64,000 nucleotides of DNA from Chryseobacterium gleum (GTDB lineage Bacteria > Bacteroidota > Bacteroidia > Flavobacteriales_F > PHOS-HE28), in NCBI GenBank assembly GCA_945872795.1, contig CAMCAZ010000001.1, positions 56,085 through 120,084 on the forward strand, written 5' to 3'. The notes beneath the pieces are model-generated. The model had not been told where the DNA came from. It saw only the letters and a list, made by a program, of their open reading frames with translations, and searched no databases. Below, piece after piece: positions 4,124-20,169 of the stretch (position 1 is its first letter; the number at the start of each line of letters is the position of its first letter). A program made the position numbers and the translations under genes.

Positions 4124-4378
4124 TTACTTCAGGCCGTTGACGTGCAACTTCGCGGATGACTTCAAGTTAGCCGCCTTGTTCTTGTGGATGATGTTCCGCT
4201 TGGCCAGCTTGTCCAACATGGAGGTCACCTCGGGCAGCAACTTCTCCGCCTCCTTCTTATCGGTGGTGGCGCGCAGGGCACGGACCGCATTACGCGTGGT
4301 CTTGTGCTGATAGCGGTTGCGATCATTGCGGGTCTCGGTCTGGCGGACGCGCTTCAGGGCTGACTTGTGGTTGGCCAT
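4124..4378 (-). CDS. rpsT: 30S ribosomal protein S20
   Basis: [27 protein letters not shown]...; the listed ORF (to 4414) carries 12 extra N-terminal residues, so the true start is probably the internal ATG at 4378. Confidence 0.85.
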
Positions 4379-4405
4379 GTCTTCTTGTGTTCCTTCCCCG
4401 GAAAG

Positions 4406-4419
4406 GGACGGCAAATATA
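4406..4419 (-). promoter_or_regulatory. Bacteroidetes-type sigma-A -7 element (TATATTTG) with conserved downstream CCGTCCC; predicted rpsT promoter
   Basis: The reverse complement of caaatata (4412-4419) is TATATTTG, matching the TAnnTTTG consensus. The 14-nt string aagggacggcaaat (4403-4416) is identical to the one upstream of tRNA-Glu (20153-20166). Confidence 0.5.
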
Positions 4420-4493
4420 GAACTCTTTATTGTGAACCACGCTCCCGTGAAAAGAAATGGCTTTGAGAGCGCGCGGCGATGGGCATCCGGACC

Positions 4494-5642
4494 TTAATAG
4501 GCCTTCTCGTCCTTTCCGAACATGTTGGTCACGGTCTTCACCACGATCTTGAGGTCAAGCCAGAACGACCAGTTCTCCAAGTACCACACGTCCAGTTCCA
4601 CGCGGCGCTCCATCAGTTCAGGGGTCTGGGTCTCGCCCCGCAGGCCGTTCACTTGGGCCCAGCCGGTGATACCGGGCCGGACGAAGTGGCGGACCATGTA
4701 CTTGTCGATGATATCCCGGTACTGCTCGTTGAGGCGAAGTGGGTGCGGACGGGGACCCACGATGCTCATGTGCCCGAACAGCACATTGAAGAACTGCGGC
4801 ATCTCGTCCAGGTTGCTCTTGCGCAGGAAGCGTCCCACGGCAGTGACGCGCGGGTCGTTCTTGGTGGCCTGCTTGGAATCGGCCTCCTTGTTCATGCGCA
4901 TGCTGCGGAACTTCCAGCAGACGAACTGCTCGTTGTCCTTGCCCAAACGGACCTGCTTGAAGAACACCGGGCCGCGGCCGGAAAGTTTGACCAGCAAAGC
5001 CAGGATGGGGAACAGCCAGGTGAAGATGAACAGGATGACACCCAGGGAGAAGGTCACGTCAAAAGCGCGCTTGATGCGACGGCTGGAGGTGCTGTCCAAG
5101 GGCTCCTGACGGATCATGCTGACCGGGACCGCCCCGTGGAACTCGAGGCCGGAGGTCTTGACCACCGGAATGAAGCTGTCGGCACTGGGAATGACCCGGA
5201 AGCGAACCGTGTTGCGCTCACAGAACTCCATCAGCTCGGTGATGTCGCTCCTTCGCGTACCGGGAAGGGCGCAGTACACAATGTCGATGTGGTTCTGGAT
5301 GGCATAGGCCTTGGCTGCCTCCACATCCCCGATTCGGCGTGCGTTCAGCGGACCATCGATGGGGGTGTCGTTGAACACACCGCAGAAACGGTAGCCACGC
5401 ACGGTCTGGTCCTCACAATACTGGAAGATCTCCTCCGCGGCAGGACCATCACCCACGATGATGAGGTCCTTGACCGAGGTCAACGGCTCTAATGTCAATA
5501 CTTTGTTCAATCCGGTCTGCACGTTCTGGAAGGACATTCGTCCCGAGCGAAGCAAGGTAGAAAGTTCCGCGTTGAGTTCCGCACCGACCGCCGCCTTGCT
5601 CGGCATCCCCACTCCGGGTTCTGCGATGATGGTCCTCTCCAT
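4494..5642 (-). CDS. undecaprenyl-phosphate sugar phosphotransferase (bacterial sugar transferase / WbaP-CpsE-like; initiating transferase)
   Basis: C-terminal catalytic domain ...RFLRKSNLDEMPQFFNVLFGHMSIVGPRPHPL...PGITGWAQVNG; one TM segment; N-terminal Rossmann-like part (DLIIVGDGPAAEEI). The track start at 5708 is GTG; an ATG (MERTII) is confirmed at 5642-5640. Confidence 0.8.
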   Translation of the reverse strand: MERTIIAEPGVGMPSKAAVGAELNAELSTLLRSGRMSFQNVQTGLNKVLTLEPLTSVKDLIIVGDGPAAEEIFQYCEDQTVRGYRFCGVFNDTPIDGPLNARRIGDVEAAKAYAIQNHIDIVYCALPGTRRSDITELMEFCERNTVRFRVIPSADSFIPVVKTSGLEFHGAVPVSMIRQEPLDSTSSRRIKRAFDVTFSLGVILFIFTWLFPILALLVKLSGRGPVFFKQVRLGKDNEQFVCWKFRSMRMNKEADSKQATKNDPRVTAVGRFLRKSNLDEMPQFFNVLFGHMSIVGPRPHPLRLNEQYRDIIDKYMVRHFVRPGITGWAQVNGLRGETQTPELMERRVELDVWYLENWSFWLDLKIVVKTVTNMFGKDEKAY

Positions 5643-5888
5643 GGTGAAGGGTACGGTTGGTTTCCAATGACCTCTTTTTCGAGGAGGCTCAAATGTACCC
5701 TCGACCACCCTGAAATGTCAAGCTCGTCGATAAATATTAATGTTCCATCGACATTTTTCCTCCTTGAACCGACCATCGATGAGGTCATGGCGAGGAGGAT
5801 ACATCGCCCTTATCTGTTCATTTTCAGACCGTTAGGCATTCCAACCACCGGTCACCTGCTGATGATCGACGACGATCCGACGAAATGC

Positions 5889-6677
5889 TCACTTCACATC
5901 GGCTTGACGCTTGTCGAACAGCCGGCGGAAAACCTCGGCCGCCAGGAGAACGAGGAACTGCGTGTTCGTTACCAGGTAACGTCTCCAAAGGCGACGAGGC
6001 TCGAGCACGAAACGGTAAAGCCATTCCAAGGAAAGGTCGCGCATCCATCGGGGCGCCCGGGTGTCCACCCCGGCATAGAGCAGGAACGCACCCCCCAAAC
6101 CGAGCATCACCCCGTTCACACGTCCCTTCATGGCCGCCATCCAGCGCTCCTGCTTGGGGCAGCCCAGGGAGACCATGACGATCTGTGCGCCTGCGGCATT
6201 GATCCGTGCGGCCTCTGCATTCATGTCCAAACCGGACAGTGGGCCGAAGGGAGGTGCATGGGAGCCTGCGAAGTGGAGGGTCGGCCACTCGCGTGCAGCC
6301 CGGTCCCTGATCTTCTGCAGGGTATCCTCCGAACCGCCGTAGAGGAACACGCTCAGGCCTTGGGATGCCGCGCGTTCGAGCAGGGCAGGCAGGAGGTCGT
6401 TACCGGCCACACGCTGCTGCTTCACCTTGTGGAACCACTGGAGGACCTTCAGCACGGGCATGCCATCCGCAGTGGCCAGGTCGGCCGCGTTCACCACCGC
6501 TGCGAAGCCAGGATCCCGGCATTCCACGGTCATGTGGGCGTTCACGCAACAGACGTAGCTGGAACGGTGGGCCTGTGCTGCCTGTGCGATCGCTTCCACA
6601 TGTTCCGTGAAGGAACCCACGCTGATGTCCACGGTGAGCACTCTTCGCTTGGGCAACTGGCTGACCGAGCTGCTCAT
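5889..6677 (-). CDS. WecB/TagA/CpsF-family glycosyltransferase (N-acetylmannosaminyltransferase-like, GT26)
   Basis: 262 aa; ...VNAHMTVEC...ADGMPVLKVLQWF...LYGGSEDTLQ...VSLGCPKQERWM... is a typical GT26 pattern. The ATG at 6677 overlaps the epimerase stop (ATGA). Confidence 0.85.
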   Translation of the reverse strand: MSSSVSQLPKRRVLTVDISVGSFTEHVEAIAQAAQAHRSSYVCCVNAHMTVECRDPGFAAVVNAADLATADGMPVLKVLQWFHKVKQQRVAGNDLLPALLERAASQGLSVFLYGGSEDTLQKIRDRAAREWPTLHFAGSHAPPFGPLSGLDMNAEAARINAAGAQIVMVSLGCPKQERWMAAMKGRVNGVMLGLGGAFLLYAGVDTRAPRWMRDLSLEWLYRFVLEPRRLWRRYLVTNTQFLVLLAAEVFRRLFDKRQADVK

Positions 6678-7693
6678 GGGCCGGCCTTCTTGGGGAGACG
6701 GACATCAATGCGCGTCGGTGCCACGATCCGCTCGCTGCCACTGTCGTACCACTTGACCATCGCCTTCACACCGGCCTCGATGGACCAGGGCGCTTCGCCC
6801 AATGCGGCGATGGTGCCTTCCATCGGCGTGATGTAATCGCTGGTCATGCTGCGGAAACGGCCGCTGGTGATGGGGAACGGGATGCCGAGGGCCTTGAGCA
6901 CATCGCCGCCCCGGGCCACCGCACGGATGAGCGTCGTGGGGATGTAGCGCACGGCCCGACCGGTGAGCTCCTTGGAGACCGCCTCCACCCACACCTTCAG
7001 GTCGAACGGACGGTCGCCGACATAAAAGACCTTGCCGTCCACCACGCTGCGGGGAACCTCCAACATGCGTTCGATCTGCCAGACCACATTGCCCACATAG
7101 CCGTAGGAGCGGACCACACGCCCCTTTCCAGGATGAACATACAGGCCCTTGCGCATCACCTTGAACAGCACGTCGCGGTAGCGCAGTGACCAGGGGCCCC
7201 AGATGGTGGTGGGCCGGATGATCGTCCAGCTGCACGGCAGTCCGGCCTCACGCGTGACCATCTCCGTGCGGCGCTTGGATTCGCCGTAGACCGTGAACGG
7301 CTTGAAGTCCAAATCGTGTCTGGGCTGGTATCCCGCTTCACAAACGAACTGGGTGCTGGTGACCACGATGCGCTCCACTCCGGGACTGTTCTTCACCACT
7401 TCCAACAGGATGCGGGTACCCTCGTGGTTCTGTCGGTAGGCGTCCACATCCACCGGTTCGTCGGTATCCGTCCGTGCAGCGAGGTGCACCACGTGCGTGG
7501 GCTTGAATTCATCGAAGACCTTTTGCATTGCCGGTCCGTCCATGATGTCCACCTCTTTCCACCACTTGCGCTGCCCCGGATCCAGCGGAGGGTTCCAATC
7601 CAGATTGATCAGCTCCACGCCTTTGGCAGCCATGTGCTCCATGAAGTTGGTCCCGATGAACCCGGAACCACCAGTGACCAGTACACGCATCAT
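6674..7693 (-). CDS. NAD-dependent epimerase/dehydratase (SDR, extended)
   Basis: MMRVLVTGGSGFIGTNF... GxxGxxG Rossmann motif. The track start at 7699 is TTG; the ATG at 7693 sits 3 nt after the GT stop. Confidence 0.85.
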   Translation of the reverse strand: MMRVLVTGGSGFIGTNFMEHMAAKGVELINLDWNPPLDPGQRKWWKEVDIMDGPAMQKVFDEFKPTHVVHLAARTDTDEPVDVDAYRQNHEGTRILLEVVKNSPGVERIVVTSTQFVCEAGYQPRHDLDFKPFTVYGESKRRTEMVTREAGLPCSWTIIRPTTIWGPWSLRYRDVLFKVMRKGLYVHPGKGRVVRSYGYVGNVVWQIERMLEVPRSVVDGKVFYVGDRPFDLKVWVEAVSKELTGRAVRYIPTTLIRAVARGGDVLKALGIPFPITSGRFRSMTSDYITPMEGTIAALGEAPWSIEAGVKAMVKWYDSGSERIVAPTRIDVRLPKKAGP

Positions 7694-7695
7694 GC

Positions 7696-8823
7696 TCAAC
7701 GCTCTTCAGATATGCCCACGAGCTCGCGCTCCATGGATCGATGGAACGCTTCCAACGTAAAATCCCGCACAAAGATGCGCCTCCCCTCCTCCCCCATCCG
7801 CCGGCGCAAGGAGGCGTCCATGGCCAAGGCCCGGAGCTTGCCGGCCACAGCTTGGGGGTCTCGGATCGGGACCAGGAATCCATTGACGCCATCGGCCACC
7901 ACCGAAGGAATGCCCCTCCACAGGGTGCTGACCACGGGTTTGGCGAACTGCATGGCCTCGACCAACACGAGCCCGAAGCTCTCCGCCTCGAAGTAGGACG
8001 GGAAGCAAAAGATGTCGCAGGCTGCGAAATGCCTGAATTTCTCCAGGTCCTGCTTGACACCCAGGAAGGAGACCCGATCGGCAAGCCCCTGCCGGACCAC
8101 ACGTTCCCTGCATTCCGTCTCGAAGGACGCATCGCCCCATTTACCCATCAGCTCCAGCCGGGCATCGACGCCCTGACCGCATAACAACGCGAAAGCATCC
8201 AACAGGTCACGGACACCTTTGGAAGGAATGAGCACACCGGTGAAGAGGATGACCAGGGGCTCCCCGGGCCGTGCGATCCGTTCCTCCACCCGGCCCCGCA
8301 TATCAGGAATTCCGTTGGGAACCACCACATCGCGCCGGGCACCCAGCACCCGTCCGTCCTCAGGGTTCTGTGGCGCTGTGCGTATCGCCAGTGCCGGACG
8401 CCCATAGGCATAGCGGAACAGCGGTCGCAACGGTGCAGGCAACTGTGCAGCGTAGGATGAAACACCACCGGCATGGAAGTGAAAGACCGTCTTCCTGAAC
8501 AACCAACGGGTGGAGCAGAGCAGGACGATATCGCGCAGCACAGGGACCTTGTTGGGCCCGCTGGGAGGATAGTAGAGCACCGGTGTGTTGTGCCGGAACC
8601 GGGCCCACCAGATGCGCAGGATGGTGGTGAAGAGCACCCAGACCTTGCGCAACGCGAATTTGCCCACGCTCTCCATATCCTCCGAAAAGGCCATGCGCAC
8701 ATGGAACAGGCGCACACGCTCAGACCTCAACTCCAGAAGCACGGCGATCATCACGGCCTGGCCTCCATGGGGCGGCGGCGTTTGACCGACCACCAGAATG
8801 CGATGAGGAGAAGTGATCTGCAC
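7696..8823 (-). CDS. glycosyltransferase family 4 (GT-B, Glycos_transf_1)
   Basis: 375 aa; C-terminal ...EAMQFAKPVVSTLWRGIPSVVADGVNGFLVP... matches the EX7E-type GT4 motif. GTG start. Confidence 0.85.
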   Translation of the reverse strand: MQITSPHRILVVGQTPPPHGGQAVMIAVLLELRSERVRLFHVRMAFSEDMESVGKFALRKVWVLFTTILRIWWARFRHNTPVLYYPPSGPNKVPVLRDIVLLCSTRWLFRKTVFHFHAGGVSSYAAQLPAPLRPLFRYAYGRPALAIRTAPQNPEDGRVLGARRDVVVPNGIPDMRGRVEERIARPGEPLVILFTGVLIPSKGVRDLLDAFALLCGQGVDARLELMGKWGDASFETECRERVVRQGLADRVSFLGVKQDLEKFRHFAACDIFCFPSYFEAESFGLVLVEAMQFAKPVVSTLWRGIPSVVADGVNGFLVPIRDPQAVAGKLRALAMDASLRRRMGEEGRRIFVRDFTLEAFHRSMERELVGISEER

Positions 8824-8991
8824 ACGGCAAAAGTATCCCGGCGATCAGGCGGGATGTGCGATGCCCAGCACACGCATCAACAGTGGAGCGTGCATCGTCT
8901 GCGCTGTGCGGCCGAAGTTCCGTCGACAAGATCGGTGCATTCGTCGTAAAAATGGAACCGTGGCAGCCAAGAGCGAGTTGAACCGCATCCA

Positions 8992-11736
8992 ATGCCATTG
9001 AAAATGAGCAGGAAACTACACGTGGGATTCGCAGTGCTTTTCACCTGGTCCACCATTTCGGCCCTTGCCACCACCTATTACATCTCTCCCACGGGCAGCG
9101 ATGCCAATAGTGGGACCTCACAGGCCCAGGCCTGGCAGACCATCGGTCGCCTGATGCAGAGCATCTATTCGCTGCAGGCCGGTGACGCCATCCGCTTTGA
9201 GCGCGGCGGCACCTACCGGGGCGAGTTCATCATTCCGAGCTCGGGCACCAGCAGCCAGAAGATCCAAGTGGGCGCCTATGGATCGGGACCACTGCCGGTG
9301 ATCAGTGGCAGTGATGCCGTGAGCGGCTGGACCCAGCAGAGCGGAAACATCTGGCGCTCCAACGTGGCGGGCACCGTGAAGTACGTATTCGTGAACGGTG
9401 AGCTGATGACCCTGGCCCGGTTCCCCAACACCGGTTGGTTGCGCAACGACCAAGGCAGTGGCACCCAGATACAGGACAGTGAGCTGACCCAGGCGAACGG
9501 GTATTGGAACGGAGCCACCGCAGTGATCCGCAGTTCGAACTGGAGCTACGACGCCGTCACGGTCTCCAACCATGCCAACGGCAGCATCACCTTCCCCAAC
9601 ATCTACTTCAACCTGTCCAACTACGAATGGGGATACTTCCTCTGCAACAAGCTCAGCGAGCTGGACAGCCCCGGTGAGTGGTTCCACGATGCGGCCAATG
9701 GCCACCTGTACCTCTGGGCACCGAACAATGCCGACCCGAACACGCTGAACGTGGAGGCCGCTGTGCGCGAAAAGGGTGTCACCGTCTTCTGGCAGCGGCA
9801 GCACGTGCAGATCAGCGACCTGGTCTTCCAGCACCAGCGGGTGTGTGGCGTGCGGAACGATGGTGCAGCATACGTGGACATCACCGGATGCACCTTCCGG
9901 GAGCTGTATCAGGGCATCAGCAGCTACGGAAACAACAATCTCTACACGAACAACCGCTTCGAGGACACCTTCGCCACCGGCGCGCACCTGATCGACAACA
10001 ATAGCACGTTCGAGGACAACACCATGGAGCGCATCGCCATGAAAGCAGGCCTGGGCGAGAGCAACTGGGGTTATTTCGGGCTGCGCCTGAACGGTACCGG
10101 CAATGTGATCCGCTCCAATCGACTGGAGGACATCGGGTACATCGGCATCGGTATGGACCAGAACTGCCTGGTGGAACGGAACGTGGTGCGCAACGCCACG
10201 GCCCTGCTGAACGATGGTGGGGGCATAGCCTTTGACAATGCAGATGGCATGATCATCCAGGACAACATCGTCGTGGACATCATCGGCGATCTGGAGAGCT
10301 CCGCACCGGACTTCGAGAACTACGAACTGATCTCGCATGGCATCTATTTCGGGAACACCACCATCCGCAACACCATCGTGCGGCGCAACACTGTGGCCCA
10401 CTGCATGGGAAGCGGCATCCATGTGGACCACACGATGGTCTCCACCGGGAACCAGATCACGGACAATGTGCTCTTCAACAACCAGATCCAGCTGAGCGTT
10501 TCGGACTATTCGAACTACAACGGACCGGGCGCCACACCACCCTACCATGTGCCGTCCTTCAACGGGACCTACACCGGGAACACCCTGTACTGCATGACGC
10601 GCGACCAGTTGTGCATGAAGCAGTACAACGTGCATTCACCGAACGTCGTCGACTTCGGGGTGTTCAACAACAACCGCTACTTCAACCCCTACAACGAGCT
10701 GAGCATCTTCGTGCACAACACGAACTCGGGGACGCAAAAGCGCTACACACTGGAGCAGTGGCGCACTGAACGGACGGAGGACCCCAACTCCACCCGGAGC
10801 CCACTGCGCCTGGAGGCCTTCGAAGTGCTGGACGAACTGAGCGCAAACCTCATCGACAACGGAACGTTCAGTTCGAACGTGGCCGGCTGGGGTGGCTGGC
10901 CCACCCAGGGTCAATTGACACGCGACGCCACCCTTCTCGACAACGGTGCCCTGAAGGTCCTGTTCAACAACAACGCATCGTACCCGGAATTCATCCTGCG
11001 GCACGATGCCATGACCGGCATCCAAAGCGGATCCCACTACCAACTGAGCTTCAGCACACAATCCACCATGCCGGGCACCTTGAAGGTGGAACTGAAAGGC
11101 CAGACCCAGATGTCCGGGCCCAACGTCGTGTACAAGAGGAACGTGCCCTTCAGCAGCGAGCGGCGCGAGGTTTCCATGATCTTCCAGAGCGACCTCACCG
11201 ACCAGGCCGTCTGCCGGTTCACCAACCACTACACCGAAAGCACCTACTGGCTGGACAATGTGGAGCTGAAGCGGGTGACCGTCCTTGCGCTGGACCCGCA
11301 CGACCGCCACATCCTGCTCATCAATGAGGAGGCCTCATCGCAGACCCTGTCGCTGACCGGTTGCTGGCGCGATGTGCATGGTACGATCCATAGCGGAAGC
11401 ATTGACCTTGCTGCGTACGGCTCGGTGGTGCTCACCAAGGAGGATGATGCGACATGCTCCATGACCACCGGCATCAACGATGTTGCGACCTCATCGTGGA
11501 GCGTGTTCCCCAACCCTGCCCAGGCCGGAGCGCACCTGAACCTCGGCCAACTGAACGGTGCATCGGCCATGGTCCGGATGTTTGACCTGAACGGCCGCCA
11601 GGTATTGGAGGAACGTATCCCCGCCGGTATGGATATCCTGCAACTTCCCGCATCCCTCGCCAGCGGCATGTACAACCTGGCCCTGGAGCGGAATGGCGAT
11701 GCAGTGCACAACACCCGTCTGATCGTGACCCAATAG
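8992..11736 (+). CDS. T9SS-secreted right-handed parallel beta-helix protein with a CBM4_9-like domain (candidate polysaccharide lyase/hydrolase)
   Basis: 914 aa; signal peptide; repeated PbH1-like turns (NNRFED..., DNIVVD..., GIYFGNTTIRNTIVRRN). Central NGTFSSNVAGWGGW... looks like a carbohydrate-binding module. The C-terminal ~80 aa (SVFPNPAQAGAHLNL...GMYNLALERNGDAVHNTRLIVTQ) is a type-A T9SS sorting domain. It is convergent to the surrounding polysaccharide operon. Confidence 0.75.
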   Translation: MPLKMSRKLHVGFAVLFTWSTISALATTYYISPTGSDANSGTSQAQAWQTIGRLMQSIYSLQAGDAIRFERGGTYRGEFIIPSSGTSSQKIQVGAYGSGPLPVISGSDAVSGWTQQSGNIWRSNVAGTVKYVFVNGELMTLARFPNTGWLRNDQGSGTQIQDSELTQANGYWNGATAVIRSSNWSYDAVTVSNHANGSITFPNIYFNLSNYEWGYFLCNKLSELDSPGEWFHDAANGHLYLWAPNNADPNTLNVEAAVREKGVTVFWQRQHVQISDLVFQHQRVCGVRNDGAAYVDITGCTFRELYQGISSYGNNNLYTNNRFEDTFATGAHLIDNNSTFEDNTMERIAMKAGLGESNWGYFGLRLNGTGNVIRSNRLEDIGYIGIGMDQNCLVERNVVRNATALLNDGGGIAFDNADGMIIQDNIVVDIIGDLESSAPDFENYELISHGIYFGNTTIRNTIVRRNTVAHCMGSGIHVDHTMVSTGNQITDNVLFNNQIQLSVSDYSNYNGPGATPPYHVPSFNGTYTGNTLYCMTRDQLCMKQYNVHSPNVVDFGVFNNNRYFNPYNELSIFVHNTNSGTQKRYTLEQWRTERTEDPNSTRSPLRLEAFEVLDELSANLIDNGTFSSNVAGWGGWPTQGQLTRDATLLDNGALKVLFNNNASYPEFILRHDAMTGIQSGSHYQLSFSTQSTMPGTLKVELKGQTQMSGPNVVYKRNVPFSSERREVSMIFQSDLTDQAVCRFTNHYTESTYWLDNVELKRVTVLALDPHDRHILLINEEASSQTLSLTGCWRDVHGTIHSGSIDLAAYGSVVLTKEDDATCSMTTGINDVATSSWSVFPNPAQAGAHLNLGQLNGASAMVRMFDLNGRQVLEERIPAGMDILQLPASLASGMYNLALERNGDAVHNTRLIVTQ

Positions 11737-11827
11737 ACCGTCACGTCCGCCTCAGCCCTTTGGTTGAGCCCACCATAAAGCACATCATCTCCGCGTTCAC
11801 GGCCGACAACTGTGCGCCGTCCGGTCT

Positions 11828-13126
11828 TCAGGAGAGGAATTCACCGCTCAACGCGCGCTTCCGGCGGGTGATGTACTTGGGGTCGATGGCCGCCATCGAG
11901 AGCATGGTGAAGAAGATGGGATTACCGAGGTCGATACCATAGCAGAAGATGTCGATCTGCCAGATGAACATCAGGTAGACGATACCCGCGAACAACGGCG
12001 CCTCGAGGGTGGTGGCCAGGTAGTGCTTGCGGTAGTAACTGAAGCCGTACCACACACACAGGTAGAACAGCACTAGTCCGATCACTCCCTGGTCCATGGT
12101 GATCTCCAGGAAGGAACTGTGCAGGTGAAAATTGAAGGAGTGCTCCTCCCCCCATAACACGGCCAGGAAGTCGAGCATACGCAGCTCGTACTGGCCCCTG
12201 TAACCCAGCCCGAAGAGCCAACCCGTCCGGTCGTGCATCGCCCAATCGGCCATCGAGTTCCAGATGTAGGTGCGACCGTTGAAGGTGGTGACATCCTCTT
12301 TATCCACCCGCTGCAGAATGGCCACGAAGAAGGGAAGTGAGAGGATCTGGTAGATGAGCAGCGCGAAGCTCATCATCAGGGGCATGGTGAAGAGGGAGAT
12401 GGTGTAGAGGCCCCGGATCACCTTCATGAACTTGAAGACGAACAGGGCCAGCAGCACCACGAAGATCATGAAGGACAGCCGGCTGTTGATGTTCATCATC
12501 ACCGCCATGTTCAACAGGAACAGTGCTCCCACGAGCAGGAACTGCAGCGGCTTGCGTGTGAAGTCGCGGAGGTAGAAGATGAGCATCAGGTTGACCACCG
12601 ACATGACGTGCGACGCGTCGTAGATGCCGCGCATGAACGGCAGGTTGATGCGTCCCTCAAAGCCATGGACCAGGTTGCGCAGGCCTGCAGCGTAACCCAC
12701 CAGGTTCAAGAGGATGAAGAAGGCGAGCCCCCTGAACAGCAACCAGGCAAAATCGAAGCGGTCATTGGCCCGATTGTAAACCTGCACCACCACCGCTGCA
12801 TTGAAGGGCACCAGGAACATGACGCTCATGGACGTGGTGTTCACCGGATTGAGGCCGGGGAAGTTCTTGCCGTAGGCCACCCACATGCTGGCGACCAGCG
12901 AGGTGATGAAGAGCATGCCCACGGCATAGACCCTGTTCACCATCGGGGTCACGCGACCCCGGTAAAGCAGGTCGATCCCGTAGATCAGCAGGATCAGGAT
13001 GAAGGGCAACACGGACAGGATGACGCCCGCACTGAAATTGGTCTTGAACGTCACATAGGTGCCCAGCCCGTAGAACGGGAAGCCGAGCAGGAACAGGGTG
13101 TTGACGAGCTTGATCTTGGAGATCAC
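11828..13126 (-). CDS. O-antigen polymerase/ligase-like (Wzy-type) polytopic membrane protein
   Basis: 432 aa with about 10-12 predicted TM helices and a periplasmic loop region typical of the Wzy_C / O-antigen ligase family. GTG start. Confidence 0.6.
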   Translation of the reverse strand: MISKIKLVNTLFLLGFPFYGLGTYVTFKTNFSAGVILSVLPFILILLIYGIDLLYRGRVTPMVNRVYAVGMLFITSLVASMWVAYGKNFPGLNPVNTTSMSVMFLVPFNAAVVVQVYNRANDRFDFAWLLFRGLAFFILLNLVGYAAGLRNLVHGFEGRINLPFMRGIYDASHVMSVVNLMLIFYLRDFTRKPLQFLLVGALFLLNMAVMMNINSRLSFMIFVVLLALFVFKFMKVIRGLYTISLFTMPLMMSFALLIYQILSLPFFVAILQRVDKEDVTTFNGRTYIWNSMADWAMHDRTGWLFGLGYRGQYELRMLDFLAVLWGEEHSFNFHLHSSFLEITMDQGVIGLVLFYLCVWYGFSYYRKHYLATTLEAPLFAGIVYLMFIWQIDIFCYGIDLGNPIFFTMLSMAAIDPKYITRRKRALSGEFLS

Positions 13127-13166
13127 CGGACCGGGCGCCTAGGAAAGCCGAGGGCCAAGTTAACCG

Positions 13167-14162
13167 CTAGTTGATGCCCAACTGTTTCTGGATCTTCGAG
13201 AAGAACGGGGTCACCGCCTCATCCACGGAGGAGGGCAGCAGGTTCTTGATGACGTTCTTGAACTTCCGGAACGAGGTGGGTTCGATGTAACGCTCGAAGT
13301 AGGCCATGTCCCGTTCCGCATCCACCAACATGTGCCAGGGGTGCACCAGAGGGAAGGCGGTCTCGTACAGATCGTCCTTGTTCCGGCGGTCCTTCTCGCT
13401 CACGGTGTGCGTTCCCTCGGCGCCGAAGCCGATGTTCCGGATCATGTTCGTGTTCGGAATGCACGTCACGCCGTGGTTCAGGATCCGCGCGAGGTCCATC
13501 TGATAGTCCCAAGAGCGGATGGTGCCCTCGTACTGGGCCTGGAACAACTTGTATGCCTCCTTCATCTCCGCCTTCGACAGGAACTGGCCTGTGAGCAGGC
13601 CGGAGTCACAGGCCGCAGGCCAGGCCTTCATCTGCACGTCGTACTTCTTCCACACCCTGCGCCAGCCGGCCCAGCCCCAATAGGCGCCGTAACCGTGTGC
13701 CGAGAAATAGTAGGAGTCCGGCCCCTTCACCGACCATTCGGTCATCAGGTTGTTGCCCATGATGCACCAAACACGATCGTCGTCGCGGTAGCGTTCCAGC
13801 AAGGCCTCACAGTACCAGAAGAAGCTCTGTGATGGATAGGTATCATCCTCCAGCACGATGCCCTCCTCCTCCTTCTCCCAGAACCAGTCCATGGCGGTGC
13901 TTTCGCCCATCATCACCCCCAGGTTCACATCACTGAACTTGGTGTGCAGTTCACACTCCCAATCCACCAGTTCCACCAGGGAACGCACCCGCTCGCAGCG
14001 CTGGCGCTCGCCTTCGTTCCGCGGTCCGTCGCAGGCGAAATAGAGCCGCGGTGGGCGTGCCTCGCGGATGGCCTCCATGACCTGGCGGGCGCTGTCGTAG
14101 CGATTGAATGCAATGAACAGGACCGGCGTACGGAGCGGAGCGGTCGGCGTAAAGGAGCTCAT
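13167..14162 (-). CDS. GT-A-fold nucleotide-diphospho-sugar transferase-like protein (HlpA-like family)
   Basis: N-terminus PVLFIAFNRYDSARQVMEAIREARPPRLYFACDGPR resembles a family I recall from Bacteroides capsule loci, annotated as glycosyltransferase or hemolytic protein HlpA-like. No TM segment. ATG at 14162. Confidence 0.45.
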   Translation of the reverse strand: MSSFTPTAPLRTPVLFIAFNRYDSARQVMEAIREARPPRLYFACDGPRNEGERQRCERVRSLVELVDWECELHTKFSDVNLGVMMGESTAMDWFWEKEEEGIVLEDDTYPSQSFFWYCEALLERYRDDDRVWCIMGNNLMTEWSVKGPDSYYFSAHGYGAYWGWAGWRRVWKKYDVQMKAWPAACDSGLLTGQFLSKAEMKEAYKLFQAQYEGTIRSWDYQMDLARILNHGVTCIPNTNMIRNIGFGAEGTHTVSEKDRRNKDDLYETAFPLVHPWHMLVDAERDMAYFERYIEPTSFRKFKNVIKNLLPSSVDEAVTPFFSKIQKQLGIN

Positions 14163-14167
14163 GACGA

Positions 14168-15421
14168 TCAGAAGATGTTCTCGCGGTTATCCCGATGATA
14201 GACCGCAAAATCCTTGAACATGGAAATGGTGTGTCGCGCGATGGTCGATGGAGAAACGAACTCATCCACGAAGCGGTAGAGGAACAGTTGCATGCGGTCG
14301 CTGTATCTAACGGAAACGTCCTGGACGATGTTACCATAACGATCATACGGCAGCACCTCGACACATCCGGCCGCATGGGCCGTGGGCAGCAACATGTTGC
14401 TGCCGTGCACACCGATCACGACCTGGCTCCGTGCATACGCCGCGCACCACGCCAGTTCGGTGGCCTTGTCCATGCGCTGTGTCCTCAGGTCATCCACATC
14501 GGGACCGAATCCACCTTTGTCACCAAGACCTACCACGGTGAAGCGGACACCGGGCAGCCGGGCGGAGATGCGGTCCATACTACCGCGGATGAGCCGATCC
14601 TGGGCATGGACATACCAGCGCCCCAGGCTCTTCTTAAGTCCGAACTTATTGAGGACCCGGTAGAGGAATTTAGCGGCCGGGGTGGCGAACCACAACCGAT
14701 CCTGGCGGGCTACGAAAGTGACGTGCGGCGGGCGCTGCAGGAACTCCTCCATCGGAAAAGGCCGCACTCCCGTGAAGCGCTCGATATCGATGTCCGCGAA
14801 CTCGGGGTGCGCGTACCCACGCCCCACGTACACCTCCTCGTAGTTGGGCAGTTGCTGCTGCACGAAGCGGTCGATGGCCGTATACCAGCCATGGGCCTCA
14901 CCCAATCGCTGATCCACCAACCATACTTCAGCCACCCCTTTGGGGACCAGCCATTGGAACATGCGGGGCAGCACGATCACCAACCCCAGATCCGGATGCT
15001 TGTCGATGTAATGCTGGGCGTTGTACAGCTTCAACAATACATGACCGTAGAGGAAATCCAGCGTATTGAGTATGACCACCCGCTCACAGGCGCGATGGAC
15101 GATCCGCTCCACCTTCACCTCCTGGTCCGAAGGCGCCCGATAGCCGTCCATGAGCGGCTTGTGGATCCATGCTTCTCCGTTCGTCGGGTTGTGCAACCTG
15201 CCATCGGCCGTGCCGATGGCCATGGGGTGGTCCACGGAAAAGCCCACGGGCAGATCACGCAGAAAGGCATACCCACATCCCTGGCAACGGTGGCGTCCCA
15301 ACACATGAACTCCCGGCCAGATGGAGCCTTGGTGATCCAACTCCCGTCCACCACACGAAGGGCAGCCGAAGTCGGCGAAGGGCTCCGGCAGAAGGGGAAC
15401 AAGATGGGGGTCCTTCACCAT
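14168..15421 (-). CDS. GT-B-like (GT9/heptosyltransferase-like motif) protein with N-terminal C4 zinc ribbon
   Basis: N-terminus CPSCGG...x17...CQGCGY is a zinc ribbon. The C-terminal region VVGLGDKGGFGPDVD...VVIGVHGSNMLLPTAHAAGCVEVLP resembles the GT9 GNDSGPMHLAAA motif. The ATG at 15421 immediately follows the Wzx stop (TGAccATG); the track start at 15553 would overlap wzx by 130 nt. Confidence 0.4.
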   Translation of the reverse strand: MVKDPHLVPLLPEPFADFGCPSCGGRELDHQGSIWPGVHVLGRHRCQGCGYAFLRDLPVGFSVDHPMAIGTADGRLHNPTNGEAWIHKPLMDGYRAPSDQEVKVERIVHRACERVVILNTLDFLYGHVLLKLYNAQHYIDKHPDLGLVIVLPRMFQWLVPKGVAEVWLVDQRLGEAHGWYTAIDRFVQQQLPNYEEVYVGRGYAHPEFADIDIERFTGVRPFPMEEFLQRPPHVTFVARQDRLWFATPAAKFLYRVLNKFGLKKSLGRWYVHAQDRLIRGSMDRISARLPGVRFTVVGLGDKGGFGPDVDDLRTQRMDKATELAWCAAYARSQVVIGVHGSNMLLPTAHAAGCVEVLPYDRYGNIVQDVSVRYSDRMQLFLYRFVDEFVSPSTIARHTISMFKDFAVYHRDNRENIF

Positions 15422-15423
15422 GG

Positions 15424-16743
15424 TCAAACGGCCCGATGGAACTTCCAGAACGAGATGATCCCTGTGCACATCCATTTCAGATTCGCGCGGGTGCTCTTGA
15501 ACAGCAGGTCCATCAGGAAGATGCTGATCGTGAACGAGCCGATGGTGGCCCATATCGCGCCGACCGACTTGAACGGAGGGATCAGCAAATAGTTCATCCC
15601 GATGTTGACCGCCGCACCCACGACCCCGGTGAGGAGCGAGTACTTGAACAGGCTCTCATTGGTGATGAAGCTGGACTTGCCCACACCCATGTTGGTGAAG
15701 AACAAGCGGATGGCGAACAGGGAAAGCAGGACACCGGACGGACGGAAGGCCTCACCGAAGAGGAGCACCATCAAGGGTTCAGCCAGGAAGTACAGGGGGA
15801 TGGCCGTGACCAGGAACATCAGGAACATCAGGCGGTACTGGTTCAACAGACGGTCCTCATACTGTCCGTTGCCGAGGGCCTTCGCCCGGGTGATGGCGGG
15901 GGCCAGGGACTTCTGCACGATGACCGGCAGGAACCCCAGTGCCTCGATCATTTTCAAGGCATTGGAGTACTGACCCACTTCGGCATTGGCCGCCTCGGCA
16001 CCCAGTCGCGTCCGTAGCATGTCGCCGATCATGACCTGATCGATCTTGGCCTGCACATATAGGGCCATGCCGAAGATGATCAAGGGCCAGGATTGCCGCA
16101 TCAGGTAACCAGCCTCCTTGCGATCATACTTCCAGGAGCGCCAGCTGTGGCCGCCCCGCTCGTAGGCGATCACATAACCGACGGAAAGCGTCAAGGTCTC
16201 CAGCACGTAGACCCAGGCGAACCAGAGCAGTGGTGCCCCGAAATAGACCAGACCGATCTTGAACAAGGCACTGACGACGACCTGCACCATCTGCACCACC
16301 ACCGTTTGCTTGGAGCGGACCTCGGCCATGAAATACCAATCCACCACACCGAAGGGTCGGAGGAGCTCCGCCGCCGCGATGACCACCACGAGGGAGGCGG
16401 TGAGGCCGTCCATGTCCTTGAAAAGACTGGACAAGAGCACAAGTATCACGAGCAGCAAGGACCCCAGGAACTTGATGACGGCCGCGGTTCCCAGCAGGGC
16501 ATCCCTTCGCTCCGGATGTTTCACCAGGTCGCGCACCACGATCTCATCGAGGCCCATGGTGGTGAGGGCGAAAAAGATGCCCACAAAGCCTGTGGCGTAG
16601 TTGAGCTGACCGAACAGGGAAGGCCCGAGGTAGCGCGCCACCAGGATGCCCGTACCCAGAACGACCACCAGACGTACGACCCGCTCGACCAGGAGCCACG
16701 AGGTATTGGCGAAATACCTGCGAAAGCCCTCCGATCGGATCAT
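15424..16743 (-). CDS. wzx: oligosaccharide flippase (MOP superfamily, Wzx-like polysaccharide biosynthesis protein)
   Basis: 439 aa, about 12 TM helices, N-terminal ...LLVERVVRLVVVLGTGILVARYLGP... is typical of Wzx/RfbX. ATG at 16743. Confidence 0.8.
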   Translation of the reverse strand: MIRSEGFRRYFANTSWLLVERVVRLVVVLGTGILVARYLGPSLFGQLNYATGFVGIFFALTTMGLDEIVVRDLVKHPERRDALLGTAAVIKFLGSLLLVILVLLSSLFKDMDGLTASLVVVIAAAELLRPFGVVDWYFMAEVRSKQTVVVQMVQVVVSALFKIGLVYFGAPLLWFAWVYVLETLTLSVGYVIAYERGGHSWRSWKYDRKEAGYLMRQSWPLIIFGMALYVQAKIDQVMIGDMLRTRLGAEAANAEVGQYSNALKMIEALGFLPVIVQKSLAPAITRAKALGNGQYEDRLLNQYRLMFLMFLVTAIPLYFLAEPLMVLLFGEAFRPSGVLLSLFAIRLFFTNMGVGKSSFITNESLFKYSLLTGVVGAAVNIGMNYLLIPPFKSVGAIWATIGSFTISIFLMDLLFKSTRANLKWMCTGIISFWKFHRAV

Positions 16744-16758
16744 GGATGGATCGGTGGA

Positions 16759-19104
16759 CTACTTGGTGTAGTAGCCATAGCCTTCCCCGTAACCCTGGCC
16801 CGGCTTCACGTCATTGAGGAGGAGGTCGACGTTGGCGATCTTCTTATCCTGGTACATCTCGCTGATCAGGCGCAGCGCACTGCGCCGGGTAAAGCCTTGA
16901 CGGACCACATAGAGGGTCACGTCGACGTGTCGCATGATGATCACGTACTCACTGACCAGGCCCATGGGCGATGCATCCACGATGATCTGATCGTACCTGC
17001 CCCTCAACTGTGCGAACAGTTCGGTGATGCGCACGTGCTCCACCAGTTCCAATGGATTGGGAGGGATCGGCCCTGCCATGATCACATCCAGCCCGGCGAC
17101 ATCGGTCTTCTTGATGATCGTATCCAGGGATTCTTCACCGATGAGATAAGTGGAAAGACCAGGTCCTTCCGGCATTTCCAGCACCGAGGCCACGCGCGGT
17201 CGGCGCATGTCCGCATCGATCAACAGGGTACGTTTTCCACTGATGGCCATGACGGTCGCCAGGTTCAATGCACAGAAGGTCTTCCCTTCGCCACTGGATG
17301 ACGAGGTGAACCCGATGATCTGTCGCTGGGTGCTCACGTTCAGGTACTGCAGGTTGATCCTTGCCGTTCGGAAGGACTCGGCCAACATGGACTTCGGCTC
17401 ATCGGGCAGGATGCGCTTCCGCTTGCTCGTGGGGATCAACGCCAGGATCGGCAAAGGGCTCAGTCGCTTAAGCTCATCGGCATCCACGATCCGGTCATTG
17501 AAGAAGTCACGGATCAGGATGAACGCCATGGGGAGCAACAGGCCCAGGAGGAGTGCGCCGCCGAGGACCACCTTCTTGTCCGGAGCCACAGGCCCCAAGC
17601 CTGCAAGTCGCGCCTCATCGATCACCACCTTGTCCACCTGGTCGGAGGCGATGGCGATGCCGGCTTCGGCACGCTTCTCCATCAGGTAATTGTAAAGGCT
17701 CTCGCTCAGTTTGAACTTCCGTTCGATGTTCCCCAGTTTGCGCTCATTCTCGGGCAACTGGTTGAACTCATAGCCGATGCGCCCCAAGCGACGGTTCACC
17801 TCGACCAAACTGATATCGGCTTGCTGAACAAGGCTTTCAGCCGTCTGGGCCAGTGAACCGGAGAGGCTCTTCATCTTCCGCTCCATGGCGATCACCGTCG
17901 GGTTGCTCTTCACCGTGGTCAGGTTCAGGGCAGCGAGATCAGCGGACAGCTTCGTGATCTCGATCACCAAGTTGTTCAGGATGGGGTCGTCGATCCCGGA
18001 GGATGAAGGAGCAGGAACGTTCCGAAGGTCTGAGGAGGAACGGATCTTCTCCAGTACGGACTGGCAATAGCTGCGGCGTCGCACCAGCGTGGATCGCTCG
18101 TCCTCCAAGCGGCTTCGCTCTTGGAACAGTTGGTCCGAGGTTCCCGTTGCGCTCATCATCCCGCCGCTGGTGCCACGGAAACCCTCCATGGAGGTCTCCA
18201 CCAGCTTCAGTGAATCGGATACGGTGCCGATCTGCTCATCGATGAAGTTGATCGTCTTCAGCCCCTTCTTCTGTTGCTTGTACAGTTCACCTTCGATGTA
18301 GGTCTCCATCAACTTATTCAGGAAGGTGCTTTCCTTCAGCACCACCTCGCCCTTGCTGCGAAGCACCACGATGTTGCTCTTGTCGCTGAGCGGCTCGGCC
18401 AGCACCTTGCCCCGGTATTCCGTCACCAGGCCCTCCAAGCTATTGATGTAGAAGAAGTGCTCCCTGCCCGCACCGTATTTCCGGTCCGCGGGGAACTCGA
18501 TCGTGAAGCCCAGATTCTTCGCAACAAAGGGCTCTCCAATGGCCACCGTCTGGTCCACCGAATAATCCTCGATGAACTGATCCATCACCTCCTGCTTCTG
18601 CACATTGTACAGTTGCACGTTGCTTCCCTTGGCCTTCACCCGATACGTGCCGGCGGTCCTGTCCACGGATACATGGATCGGCACCCCGGTGACCTGCAAG
18701 GCAACCGTGTCCAGCTTGACGAAGAAGGGTGGATACTCGAACCGTTCCACCGTAAGGAAGTTGTAGGTCTCGTAGTAGCTGATACCGAGATCCACGCGCT
18801 TCAGTGTCTTGGTGATGTTGTTCCGCGAGGTCAGCACCGAGATCTGGTCCTCGATGTCCGTGTTGCTCTGGAGATAAGAGACGCCCTTGAGGAACTCATC
18901 CTGCCCCCCTCCGAAGGAACTGCGGCTCTTCTCGCTCATCAGCATCACGGCCTGCACTCCATACTGCTTGGGTGTGGTCTTCAAATAGGCCACTGCGACC
19001 ACCAGCGCAAGGGTGGTGGTGAGCAGGAACAACCACCACTTGGCGACGAGCTTGCGAAAGATGACCCGCAGGTCGATGGTGTCGTTGATCGGCGCTGCGC
19101 TCAT
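16759..19104 (-). CDS. wzc: polysaccharide co-polymerase / tyrosine autokinase (Wzc-like, PCP-2a)
   Basis: 781 aa; N-terminal Wzz-like periplasmic domain flanked by TM helices; C-terminal BY-kinase with Walker A (SSSSGEGKTFCALNLA) and DxD (LLIDADMRRP); tyrosine-rich tail GYGEGYGYYTK. Confidence 0.85.
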   Translation of the reverse strand: MSAAPINDTIDLRVIFRKLVAKWWLFLLTTTLALVVAVAYLKTTPKQYGVQAVMLMSEKSRSSFGGGQDEFLKGVSYLQSNTDIEDQISVLTSRNNITKTLKRVDLGISYYETYNFLTVERFEYPPFFVKLDTVALQVTGVPIHVSVDRTAGTYRVKAKGSNVQLYNVQKQEVMDQFIEDYSVDQTVAIGEPFVAKNLGFTIEFPADRKYGAGREHFFYINSLEGLVTEYRGKVLAEPLSDKSNIVVLRSKGEVVLKESTFLNKLMETYIEGELYKQQKKGLKTINFIDEQIGTVSDSLKLVETSMEGFRGTSGGMMSATGTSDQLFQERSRLEDERSTLVRRRSYCQSVLEKIRSSSDLRNVPAPSSSGIDDPILNNLVIEITKLSADLAALNLTTVKSNPTVIAMERKMKSLSGSLAQTAESLVQQADISLVEVNRRLGRIGYEFNQLPENERKLGNIERKFKLSESLYNYLMEKRAEAGIAIASDQVDKVVIDEARLAGLGPVAPDKKVVLGGALLLGLLLPMAFILIRDFFNDRIVDADELKRLSPLPILALIPTSKRKRILPDEPKSMLAESFRTARINLQYLNVSTQRQIIGFTSSSSGEGKTFCALNLATVMAISGKRTLLIDADMRRPRVASVLEMPEGPGLSTYLIGEESLDTIIKKTDVAGLDVIMAGPIPPNPLELVEHVRITELFAQLRGRYDQIIVDASPMGLVSEYVIIMRHVDVTLYVVRQGFTRRSALRLISEMYQDKKIANVDLLLNDVKPGQGYGEGYGYYTK

Positions 19105-19892
19105 CAGTTCTGTGAGTTCTGGATAACGGAGATCACGACAGCCGCCGTGCTCACGGTGGCCAGGAGGATGGTGAGCAGTTCCAGGTTCAAACGTCCCGCA
19201 CGGGCACGCAACGTGGGTACATAGATCACATCATTGGGCAGCAGGTAGTAGTACTCGGAACTGAGCACATCGGTGCCCGACATATCCAGATACAAGGCCT
19301 GCACCCCCCGATCGCTCTGCCGCATCAACTGAACGTGGGTCTTATCCGCGAACTCGTTCGGACCACCGGCCATGGCCAACGCTTCCAGTACCGTGATCTG
19401 GTTGTTGTACACAAAGTAGGAACCGGGGCGCTGCACATCGCCCAGTACGCTCACCCTGAAACTGACGAGTTTGAGGATGACCGTGGCATTGGTGAAATAC
19501 TCGTTGATCTTGCGCTGCACCAGTTCCTGGGCCTCGCCCACCGTGAGCCCCTGCACCTTGATCTTGCCCACCGTGGGCAGTTGGACGTGCCCGTTCTTGT
19601 CGATGGAGAAACCGTTCACGTAAAGCGCGGCGTCATTCAGTCCCTGGAAAGCGTTCTGTCCCTCCACATTGAAGAACCGGTGGGTCTGTTCGTCGAGACC
19701 CATCACGCGGATGGACAGCACATCGTTCACTTGGATGCGGTACTCGAACTTGCGGTTCTCGAACAGCTTGCTTGAGCCCTTGCTCAGGGAAGCGTCCTCC
19801 AGGTAATTGATGTTGCGCTTGCCCATGCAACCGGTCAATAACAACAAAGCCGGGATCAGTATCCAGCCAGAACGGGAGATCGCATTCCTCAT
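19104..19892 (-). CDS. wza: polysaccharide export outer-membrane lipoprotein (Wza-like, Poly_export + SLBB)
   Basis: Lipobox LLLTGC; YRIQVNDVLSIRVMG (Poly_export) and a later SLBB-like segment. ATG (MRNAIS) confirmed at 19892; the track start at 19958 is further upstream. The stop overlaps the wzc start (TGATG). Confidence 0.8.
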   Translation of the reverse strand: MRNAISRSGWILIPALLLLTGCMGKRNINYLEDASLSKGSSKLFENRKFEYRIQVNDVLSIRVMGLDEQTHRFFNVEGQNAFQGLNDAALYVNGFSIDKNGHVQLPTVGKIKVQGLTVGEAQELVQRKINEYFTNATVILKLVSFRVSVLGDVQRPGSYFVYNNQITVLEALAMAGGPNEFADKTHVQLMRQSDRGVQALYLDMSGTDVLSSEYYYLLPNDVIYVPTLRARAGRLNLELLTILLATVSTAAVVISVIQNSQN

Positions 19893-20004
19893 ATTAAGGT
19901 CAGACCTGTTGGGGTACACTGCAGTACACCGACCGCTCGGCGAACGTTCAAGACACAACCGGTCCAGGTCAAATATACGTTCGACCCTCAGCCCGGGTTA
20001 CGCC

Positions 20005-20038
20005 GCAAGAAAAAGCCCCCCCGCAAAGCGGAGGGGCC
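20005..20038 (-). terminator. rho-independent terminator downstream of tRNA-Glu
   Basis: G/C-rich hairpin (gcccccccgc aaa gcggaggggc, one bulge) at 20015-20038. On the minus strand it is followed by TTTTTCTT (complement of 20005-20014). Confidence 0.6.
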
Positions 20039-20047
20039 TCTCTTCCG

Positions 20048-20119
20048 TAGCCCGTAGGGGAATCGAACCCCTGTTTCATCCGTGAAAGGGACGCGTCCTA
20101 ACCCCTAGACGAACGGGCC
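20048..20119 (-). tRNA. tRNA-Glu (anticodon UUC)
   Basis: Reverse complement reads GGCCCGT-TC-GTCT-AGGGGTTA-GGAC-G-CGTCC-CTTTCAC-GGATG-AAAC-AGGGG-TTCGATT-CCCCT-ACGGGCT-A. This is a canonical cloverleaf (7-bp acceptor with G1:U72, 4-bp D stem, 5-bp anticodon stem). The anticodon loop is CTTTCAC, so the anticodon is UUC. The T-loop is TTCGATT. CCA is not encoded. Confidence 0.85.
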
Positions 20120-20152
20120 ATCATGACACCCCTGCGAACAAGGGTCCCCGGT

Positions 20153-20169
20153 AAGGGACGGCAAATGTA
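20153..20169 (-). promoter_or_regulatory. Bacteroidetes-type -7 promoter element (TACATTTG) for tRNA-Glu, with the same downstream CCGTCCCTT as the rpsT promoter
   Basis: The reverse complement of caaatgta (20162-20169) is TACATTTG. The string aagggacggcaaat (20153-20166) is identical to 4403-4416. It lies about 43 nt upstream of the mature tRNA 5' end. Confidence 0.5.

Follow-up and report, generated by a model that had tools for sequence, protein, structure and literature searches.

A C-rich module downstream of the -7 box at rpsT, tRNA and rRNA promoters of Bacteroidota

The promoters of rpsT and tRNA-Glu in the window and its relatives

The 64,000-nucleotide (nt) stretch of contig CAMCAZ010000001.1 analysed here (assembly GCA_945872795.1, Chryseobacterium gleum; hereafter the window) carries on its minus strand, ahead of rpsT and of a tRNA-Glu gene, a TAnnTTTG -7 box of the Bacteroidota sigma-A type that runs directly into the C-rich sequence CCGTCCC. 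The first site belongs to rpsT, which encodes ribosomal protein S20 (4124-4378, minus strand; Pfam Ribosomal_S20p PF01649, E = 2e-23). Its box, TATATTTG, lies at 4412-4419 and its start-site module CCGTCCC, positions p1-p7 after TTTG, at 4405-4411, so that the site stands 33 nt on the 5' side of the rpsT ATG (4378). The second site belongs to tRNA-Glu(UUC) (20047-20119, minus strand; Rfam tRNA, 58.6 bits), the sole tRNA of the window, with the box TACATTTG at 20162-20169 and the same CCGTCCC module at 20155-20161, on the 5' side of the tRNA and 42 nt from its 5' end. An intrinsic terminator-like hairpin with a T-run follows tRNA-Glu on the same strand (20007-20036).

The original prediction started from a 14-nt identity of these two sites, ATTTGCCGTCCCTT, which we find on the minus strand at 4416-4403 and 20166-20153. 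The identity in fact reaches further than had been claimed, since a longer stretch, TTTGCCGTCCCTT(T/A)CCGGGGA, is shared in 20 of 21 bases between 4415-4395 and 20165-20145 of the minus strand, with 0.00 occurrences expected by chance. The shorter string TAnnTTTGCCGTCC is present in three minus-strand copies in the window against 0.09 expected, and TANNTTTGCCGTCC is found on the minus strand at 4419-4406, 20169-20156 and, within the Nif3 gene, at 25937-25924; none of 100 shuffles gave three copies. At all three sites the box is an exact TAnnTTTG. The window (60.5% guanine plus cytosine, GC) holds eleven such boxes in total, ten of which lie directly 5' of an open reading frame (ORF) or tRNA on the same strand and thus behave as genuine Bacteroidota -7 boxes, the eleventh being the third copy of the motif in the Nif3 ORF. 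A TTTG 19-23 nt 5' of the boxes at 4419 and 20169 was not found; these positions hold GGTTC-like strings only.

Is the C-rich module merely part of the general promoter consensus of a GC-rich genome? The bases that follow other boxes, in the window and in its relatives, rule this out. The other eight boxes of the window continue into unrelated sequence (e.g. TTCCTAT, GAACATG, AGCATCC or ACCTGGA). For the clade we compared regions of uncultured 'Flavobacteriales bacterium', namely the rpsT loci L001, L002 and L007-L011 and the loci L012-L015, which cover Nif3, the zinc-ribbon gene, the prolyl-tRNA synthetase (ProRS) gene and tRNA-Glu. The count, made in eight related sequences with 196 kilobases (kb) in total, gave 37 TAnnTTTG boxes, 10 of which precede rpsT or tRNA-Glu. 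The sequence C[CG][GC][CT]CCC directly follows the box at all ten rpsT and tRNA-Glu promoters and at none of the 27 others, in agreement with the prediction that CCGTCC(C) stands outside the general TAnnTTTG consensus.

In the clade the module takes the forms CCGTCCC, CGGCCCC, CCGCCCC and CGCCCCC. All rpsT orthologs keep the same box, TATATTTG, and carry CGGCCCC or CCGCCCC behind it, while the tRNA-Glu promoters have TA(C/T)(A/T)TTTG in 8 orthologs, with CGGCCCC, CCGTCCC, CGCCCCC, CCGCCCC or CACTCCC as the module. In the comparison across relatives, as had been proposed along with the motif, at orthologous rpsT and tRNA-Glu promoters the sequence 5' of the box has diverged beyond recognition, while box and module are retained. 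Since the promoters compared are orthologs, this conservation reflects purifying selection on two promoter families and not ten separate events. A search for the exact 19-base motif in one genome per species returned six matches, four of them real; exact matching is too strict.

A related arrangement was seen at the ProRS gene of the window (20901-22370, minus strand), where an off-consensus box, TACTTTAG, is followed by CCGCGCTC at about 22371-22420. The ProRS promoters of the relatives read TACTTTAG-CCGCC(C/T), close to the stable-RNA module, and the one of L013, CCGCCCAT, equals a tRNA-Met promoter. In sequence, these promoters hint at a weaker form of the module that is possibly common to aminoacyl-tRNA synthetase genes.

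tRNA, rRNA and ribosomal-protein promoters beyond the clade

We scanned metagenome contigs for the module followed, at a distance of 49-79 nt, by the common tRNA T-loop, and obtained at least 120 matches. Among the matches listed there are at least 79 unique promoters and at least 22 anticodon families, with tRNAs for Glu, Val, Pro, Ser, Arg, Leu, Gly, Gln, His, Cys, Lys and Ala; the contigs range from 32 to 70% GC, 63 of the 120 lying at or below 45%, and the mature tRNA 5' end is often found only 8-12 nt after TTTG. The module is GC-rich even in contigs of 32-45% GC, and its first four bases are CCGT, CGGC or CCGC. With a tRNA 5' end as near as 8 nt to TTTG, transcription must start inside the module. 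A TTG in the -33 zone is present in 53 of the 96 unique sequences upstream of these tRNA promoters. Viral contigs served as a negative control: there the 14-base motif gave at least 120 chance or coding matches, and a tRNA lies 3' of none of those listed.

Single promoters illustrate how closely module and tRNA can be packed. At L011 a tRNA-Arg promoter reads TATCTTCG-CCGCCGCTT, and the tRNA begins at the tenth base after the box; on L004, a contig with 47.6% GC, TACTTTTG-CCGTCCCTTTCC immediately adjoins tRNA-Val. The latter contig (CAZGHI010000034.1) bears the label 'uncultured Hyphomicrobiales' and has a Bacteroidota-type promoter at this tRNA-Val; it is probably a mis-binned Bacteroidota contig. 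A tRNA-Val(GAC) promoter of the CCGTCCC form reads TACATTTGCCGTCCCC, followed by GGGC. In a very common freshwater or marine lineage (L142, L144, L150, L151, L155 and others), tRNA-Val GAC is preceded by TACATTTG-CCGTCCCC and then the mature 5' end. As CCGTCCCC abuts this end, the primary leader leaves only about 4-6 nt for removal by RNase P.

Because the scan was conditioned on the motif, the real test lies in other features of the same 791 kb of metagenome loci. For this count a relaxed form, C.[GC][CT]CC after a TAnnTT[TC]G box, was used. It is present at 8 of the 11 tRNAs that the scan had not selected, the bystander tRNAs (73%), but at only 4 of the 155 TAnnTTTG boxes that lie 5' of coding genes (2.6%), and at 10 of 280 when all other boxes are taken together. 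Between bystander tRNAs and coding-gene boxes this corresponds to an enrichment of about 30-fold (odds ratio about 100; Fisher p = 6e-9). The same loci contain three bystander 16S operons (L145, L215 and L219), each with tandem promoters 150-330 nt 5' of 16S and about 155 nt between them. Here, rRNA P1 reads TA..TTTG-CCGTCCGC and rRNA P2 reads TACCTTTG-CACTCCCG. Of the enrichment that had been asked for, that upstream of tRNA genes is seen in these loci, the module being present at rRNA promoters as well, and together the bystander tRNAs and the rRNA promoters bear out the suggestion of an initiation-region element shared by genes of the translation machinery.

For ribosomal proteins the evidence consists of rpsT in the clade, one rpmG and three operons of Flavobacterium psychrophilum. 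The rpmG (L33) promoter, on L180, reads TAATTTTG-CACCTCC; a crude screen of the loci for basic ORFs returned S20 and one DUF4295/L33 cluster only. What emerges is a position-fixed, asymmetric module of 7-8 bases directly after the -7 box, which occurs phylum-wide and is specific to stable-RNA promoters and some ribosomal-protein promoters.

Start site, leader hairpins, third copy and gene order

In F. psychrophilum, 5'-end maps place the box at -12 to -5 (PMC9723704). In the accessible part of Table S2 of that study, +1 (in brackets) is the fifth or sixth base after TTTG at ribosomal-protein promoters (rplM-rpsI TTTG-CACT[C]CCTT, rpsP CACC[C]TTAA, rpsO CACTC[G]AAT) as well as at tRNA promoters (tRNA-Leu CACT[C]ACGG, tRNA-Ser CACTC[G]CAA, tRNA-Cys CAAT[C]CG), while ordinary promoters given there have TATCA, TACCT, CAATA or TAGCT in place of CACTC (PMC9723704). 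This low-GC flavobacterium thus uses CACTC(CC), a sister form of the CCGTC(CC) of the window and equal to it in register; the consensus common to both is C-(A/C)-(C/G)-(T/C)-C-C-C. By analogy, transcription in the window is predicted to begin at 4407 for rpsT and at 20157 for tRNA-Glu, in both cases with the C that opens the CCC run.

Beyond the module, the CCGGGGA of the 21-nt identity can pair with the CCC run. Outside the consensus, the match in 20 of 21 bases reflects in large part the complementary arm of a leader hairpin, and possibly also common promoter descent. The rpsT mRNA can be drawn with a hairpin at its predicted 5' end (4392-4406, minus strand), CCUUUC-CGG-GGAAGG or alternatively UCCC/GGGA (-5.2 kcal/mol, z = +0.45). 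The pre-tRNA-Glu leader (20128-20157, minus strand) is predicted to fold into two hairpins, CCCU/GGGG (20157-20146) and ACCCUUG-UUCG-CAGGGGU (20145-20128), with -14.1 kcal/mol in all (z = -1.15); taken singly, neither leader of the window folds better than its shuffles. The 20128-20145 hairpin has a UUCG tetraloop; one of its U-G pairs has become U-A in the close relative L003, through a G-to-A change.

Significance is reached only when many leaders are counted together. Among the matches listed, 34 unique tRNA promoters have a leader of at least 17 nt, and in 14 of these the whole CCC run is paired, compared with 3.2 from composition-keeping shuffles. The stems of orthologs co-vary (TCCC/GGGA, GTCCC/GGGAC, GCCCC/GGGGC, CCCC-GAAA-GGGG), and a hairpin with an A-rich loop lies 3' of both rRNA P1 and rRNA P2, with compensatory changes between L145 and L215 in that of P1. 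Where leaders are short or AT-rich, which applies to about half of the promoters, the module is kept without a hairpin. We regard the hairpin as a frequent secondary feature and not as a core element. An S20 autoregulatory leader or another known RNA could be ruled out as the source of the motif, as Rfam gives only the tRNA in the window and the motif is common to tRNA and rRNA promoters.

The third copy of the motif, TACCTTTG followed by CCGTCCG (25923-25937, minus strand), lies in the last 20 codons of the Nif3 gene (25883-26977, minus strand; Pfam DUF34_NIF3 PF01784, E = 5e-78), where it is read in frame as P-T-F-A-V-R. It stands 44 nt 5' of the ATG (25879) of a gene for a Zn_ribbon_9/CT398-like coiled-coil protein (25055-25879, minus strand; Pfam), and the order Nif3, then zinc-ribbon gene is syntenic in the relatives. 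The related copy that had been predicted ahead of the zinc-ribbon gene is therefore there, but inside the Nif3 ORF and not in an intergenic region.

Conservation of the third copy is in part due to the Nif3 protein motif PTFAVRL. However, a TA..TT[TC]G box is kept in 8 of 8 orthologs, and in L256 it survives the replacement of Thr by Lys (CCT-AAA-TTT-G). In each ortholog the box takes its T from the third position of a codon, which is TCT (Ser) in L012 and CCT (Pro) in the other seven; in GC-rich genomes, CCT is seldom used. Both synonymous changes observed, GCC to GCG and TTT to TTC, are also found at bona fide tRNA promoters, and the window copy, TACCTTTGCCGTCCG, matches the L215 rRNA P1 promoter over 15 nt. 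In distant orthologs the module is weaker (CAACCCG, CGGTTCA). A coding coincidence is thereby weakened, not disproved, as the box outlasts synonymous and non-synonymous change in eight orthologs. From these sequence comparisons, the third copy is probably an internal promoter of the zinc-ribbon gene.

Gene order offers a clue to the resemblance of the rpsT and tRNA-Glu promoters. In L256, a relative with 44% GC, a single promoter, TACATTTG-CACTCCCTTT, precedes tRNA-Glu, and rpsT follows 15 nt after the tRNA (L256 16162-16501). In the window 15.6 kb separate the two genes, each of which has its own copy of the promoter core, and the interval between them (4494-19958, minus strand) is occupied by a polysaccharide biosynthesis and export cluster with genes for a sugar transferase, glycosyltransferases, a beta-helix protein, a Wzz/tyrosine-kinase-like protein and Poly_export. 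Given the 15-nt spacing in L256, an ancestral tRNA-Glu-rpsT operon seems to have been split by the insertion of this cluster. The stable-RNA-type promoter of rpsT is thus probably explained by former co-transcription with tRNA-Glu, a history which may also account for the likeness of the hairpin loops, TTTCCG and TTACCG. Outside the clade, an S20 tblastn search of the metagenome loci found no rpsT beside tRNA-Glu.

A candidate promoter class and competing explanations

We propose, with a probability that we put at roughly 0.7, that a separate class of sigma-A promoters serves tRNA, rRNA and some ribosomal-protein genes in Bacteroidota, and that the motif forms its core. Such a promoter would combine an ordinary TAnnTTTG -7 box with a fixed C-rich module, C-(C/A/G)-(G/C)-(T/C)-C-C-C (here CCGTCCC), that spans the discriminator (-4 to -1) as well as the bases transcribed first, with transcription starting at the first C of the CCC run. 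In leaders of sufficient length, an optional third part would be a GGG(R) further downstream that pairs with the CCC run. We infer that the sigma-A RNA polymerase itself reads the module during open-complex formation and start-site choice. In analogy to the GC-rich discriminators of other bacteria, the module may set a high output that is tied to growth rate or nutrient state, which would place these promoters under growth-rate or stringent control. The rpsT copy would then go back to ancestral co-transcription with tRNA-Glu, a copy having been kept by each gene after the polysaccharide cluster split the pair.

The nearest known system is SM2, a sigma-A promoter class of F. psychrophilum with a C+A-rich 3' extension and the top mean expression (Guerin et al. 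2021, PMC9723704); the same study describes the -33 box as dispensable. In both, TAnnTTTG occupies -12 to -5 and continues on its 3' side into a C-rich stretch across the start site, and the register of CACTC(CC), as in the CACT[C]CC of rplM and tRNA-Leu, equals that of CCGTCCC here. Indeed, in the accessible part of Table S2 all ribosomal-protein sigma-A promoters and one tRNA promoter belong to SM2 (PMC9723704). In contrast to the module described here, the 'C+A-rich' extension is a statistical description tied to expression level, not to stable-RNA or translation genes, and comes without a phylum-wide consensus. SM2 also has a -33 TTTG, which the window copies do not, and CAC where the window form has CCG, with C as the second and G as the third base. 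High expression of the window promoters, as in SM2, is plausible since the downstream genes are a tRNA and rpsT.

GC-rich discriminators of stringently controlled stable-RNA promoters, of the Escherichia coli rrnB P1 type, were reportedly described by Travers in 1980 (reviewed in PMC12641261). Down-regulation by (p)ppGpp or in slow growth and a short-lived open complex also characterise that class. They resemble the present module in forming a GC-rich segment from a -10-like element to +1 and in their occurrence at rRNA, tRNA and ribosomal-protein promoters, but their box is TATAAT instead of TAnnTTTG and is read by another sigma factor. In addition, the consensus found here reaches into the transcribed CCC, and the start is apparently a pyrimidine instead of A or G. 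Initiating nucleoside triphosphates are sensed at rrn promoters, GTP in Bacillus subtilis and ATP or GTP at E. coli rrn P1. A start base conserved within a stable-RNA class could likewise couple output to a nucleotide pool, although the predicted base here would be C (CTP). There is also a resemblance, and only that, to the TOP motif of vertebrate ribosomal-protein mRNAs, which works in translation through LARP1 and mTOR: in both cases transcripts of the translation machinery start with C followed by pyrimidines (CCCTTT). Here, however, the motif is common to tRNA and rRNA precursors and lies in part 5' of +1.

Several points weigh against the proposed class. The metagenome scan was conditioned on motif and T-loop, so that only the bystander tRNAs (n = 11) are unbiased, and the clade orthologs, not being independent, effectively amount to two or three promoter families. 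Relaxed forms of the module also lie 5' of TonB-receptor-like and KatG-like genes, and the zinc-ribbon gene behind the third copy is no known translation gene. The module is thus not exclusive to translation genes, and its link with them is confounded with promoter strength. The +1 assignment, moreover, relies on maps made in another genus and for the sister CACTC form. A pyrimidine start would be atypical, purines making up 86% of the start sites in Bacteroides thetaiotaomicron, and in the CCG form the conserved G, the third base after TTTG, could be +1 instead.

Among other explanations, the one that follows from this confounding sees in the module a strength optimum only: the C-rich sequence would be the best start context for the Bacteroidota polymerase, used wherever a gene calls for very high, constitutive output, with no growth-rate or stringent role. 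Besides the copies before KatG-like, TonB-receptor-like and zinc-ribbon genes, it can point to SM2, which was defined by top mean expression and not by gene function (PMC9723704). The module is, however, nearly missing from the 155 coding-gene boxes, some of which are necessarily strong, and in E. coli, if the analogy holds, GC-rich discriminators reduce intrinsic strength and serve regulation, discriminator composition varying with gene function (PMC12641261). We consider this a possible explanation, though a doubtful one. That the rpsT promoter is simply a tRNA-Glu promoter duplicated when the operon was split, its near-identity due to recent common descent, appears unlikely as a full account. 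The undivided unit of L256 with its one promoter and the similar hairpin loops speak for such a history; yet the two copies are unrelated 5' of -12 and 3' of about +15, both are under purifying selection in relatives with diverged flanks, and distant lineages carry this module at tRNA and rRNA promoters unrelated to these. Descent may account for the extra identity, but not for the element.

The paired CCC runs of the long tRNA leaders, the co-varying stems of orthologs and the compensatory changes in the rRNA P1 hairpins would all be expected if the motif acted on the RNA level and not in promoter recognition: a C-run and stem-loop at the 5' terminus would then stabilise the transcript or direct its 5' processing. 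As a main role this is quite unlikely, because the first four bases of the module lie 5' of the mapped start and hence outside the RNA, and because about half of the promoters keep the module with a leader too short or too AT-rich for a hairpin; the window leaders, too, fold no better than shuffles. Finally, the original prediction also allowed for a binding site of a factor that co-regulates translation genes, which would here mean a DNA-binding protein conserved in Bacteroidota that recognises CCGTCCC(TTnCCGGGGA). The window copies, with 20 of 21 nt in common including a partial dyad TCCC-N6-GGGA, and a gene set resembling a regulon could be read in this way. Our data disfavour such an operator, which we hold to be very improbable: the conserved part abuts the -7 box in an invariant register and overlaps the mapped start, and the GGG partner is missing or stands at a variable distance (loop of 3 to more than 20 nt), so that no dyad is conserved. 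Where the tRNA begins 8-12 nt after TTTG, as is often the case, a protein would be left with no more than 7-8 conserved bases, which are asymmetric, and the motif persists across lineages of 32-70% GC.

Little is understood of how ribosome synthesis is tied to growth in Bacteroidota, whose primary sigma factor and promoters are atypical. The open-access literature searched defines no stable-RNA promoter signature for the phylum, nor a consensus tied to tRNA, rRNA and ribosomal-protein promoters across it, and the motif string itself was found there in unrelated primers only. A short fixed module separates tRNA, rRNA and rpsT promoters from ordinary ones in lineages of 32-70% GC. It provides a sequence that can be swapped in tests of growth-rate and stringent control, in gut Bacteroides as well as in environmental Flavobacteria, a means of predicting stable-RNA transcription units in metagenome-assembled genomes, and a defined strong core promoter for genetic tools. 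Even if it were a strength optimum only, it would still be a practical rule for annotation and engineering.

Much more tentatively, we speculate that the whole translation regulon of Bacteroidota (rRNA, most tRNAs and some ribosomal-protein operons) might depend on one phylum-wide promoter class, whose invariant C-rich discriminator and C start would make RNA polymerase sense the growth state. This would set it apart from the mechanisms of Proteobacteria and Firmicutes, with their purine starts and their reliance on DksA/ppGpp or a GTP pool. CTP or a Bacteroidota-specific ppGpp route would be candidate signals, and the CCC/GGG hairpin at the 5' end could be a co-evolved second layer. This wider picture is a long shot.

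Further features of the window lie apart from these promoters. Two TACCTTTG boxes on opposite strands, about 50 nt apart at 61565-61629, form a divergent promoter pair, one box serving a minus-strand gene of about 500 amino acids and the other a signal-peptide protein that leaves the window. At 41380-41512 on the minus strand, a TAACTTTG box stands 5' of an ORF for a predicted lipoprotein of 43 amino acids (MKKVLLILAAVVLVSVTMTSC...), shorter than the usual gene-calling length. A very long ORF of 2874 amino acids with a GTG start extends over 48517-57141 on the plus strand.

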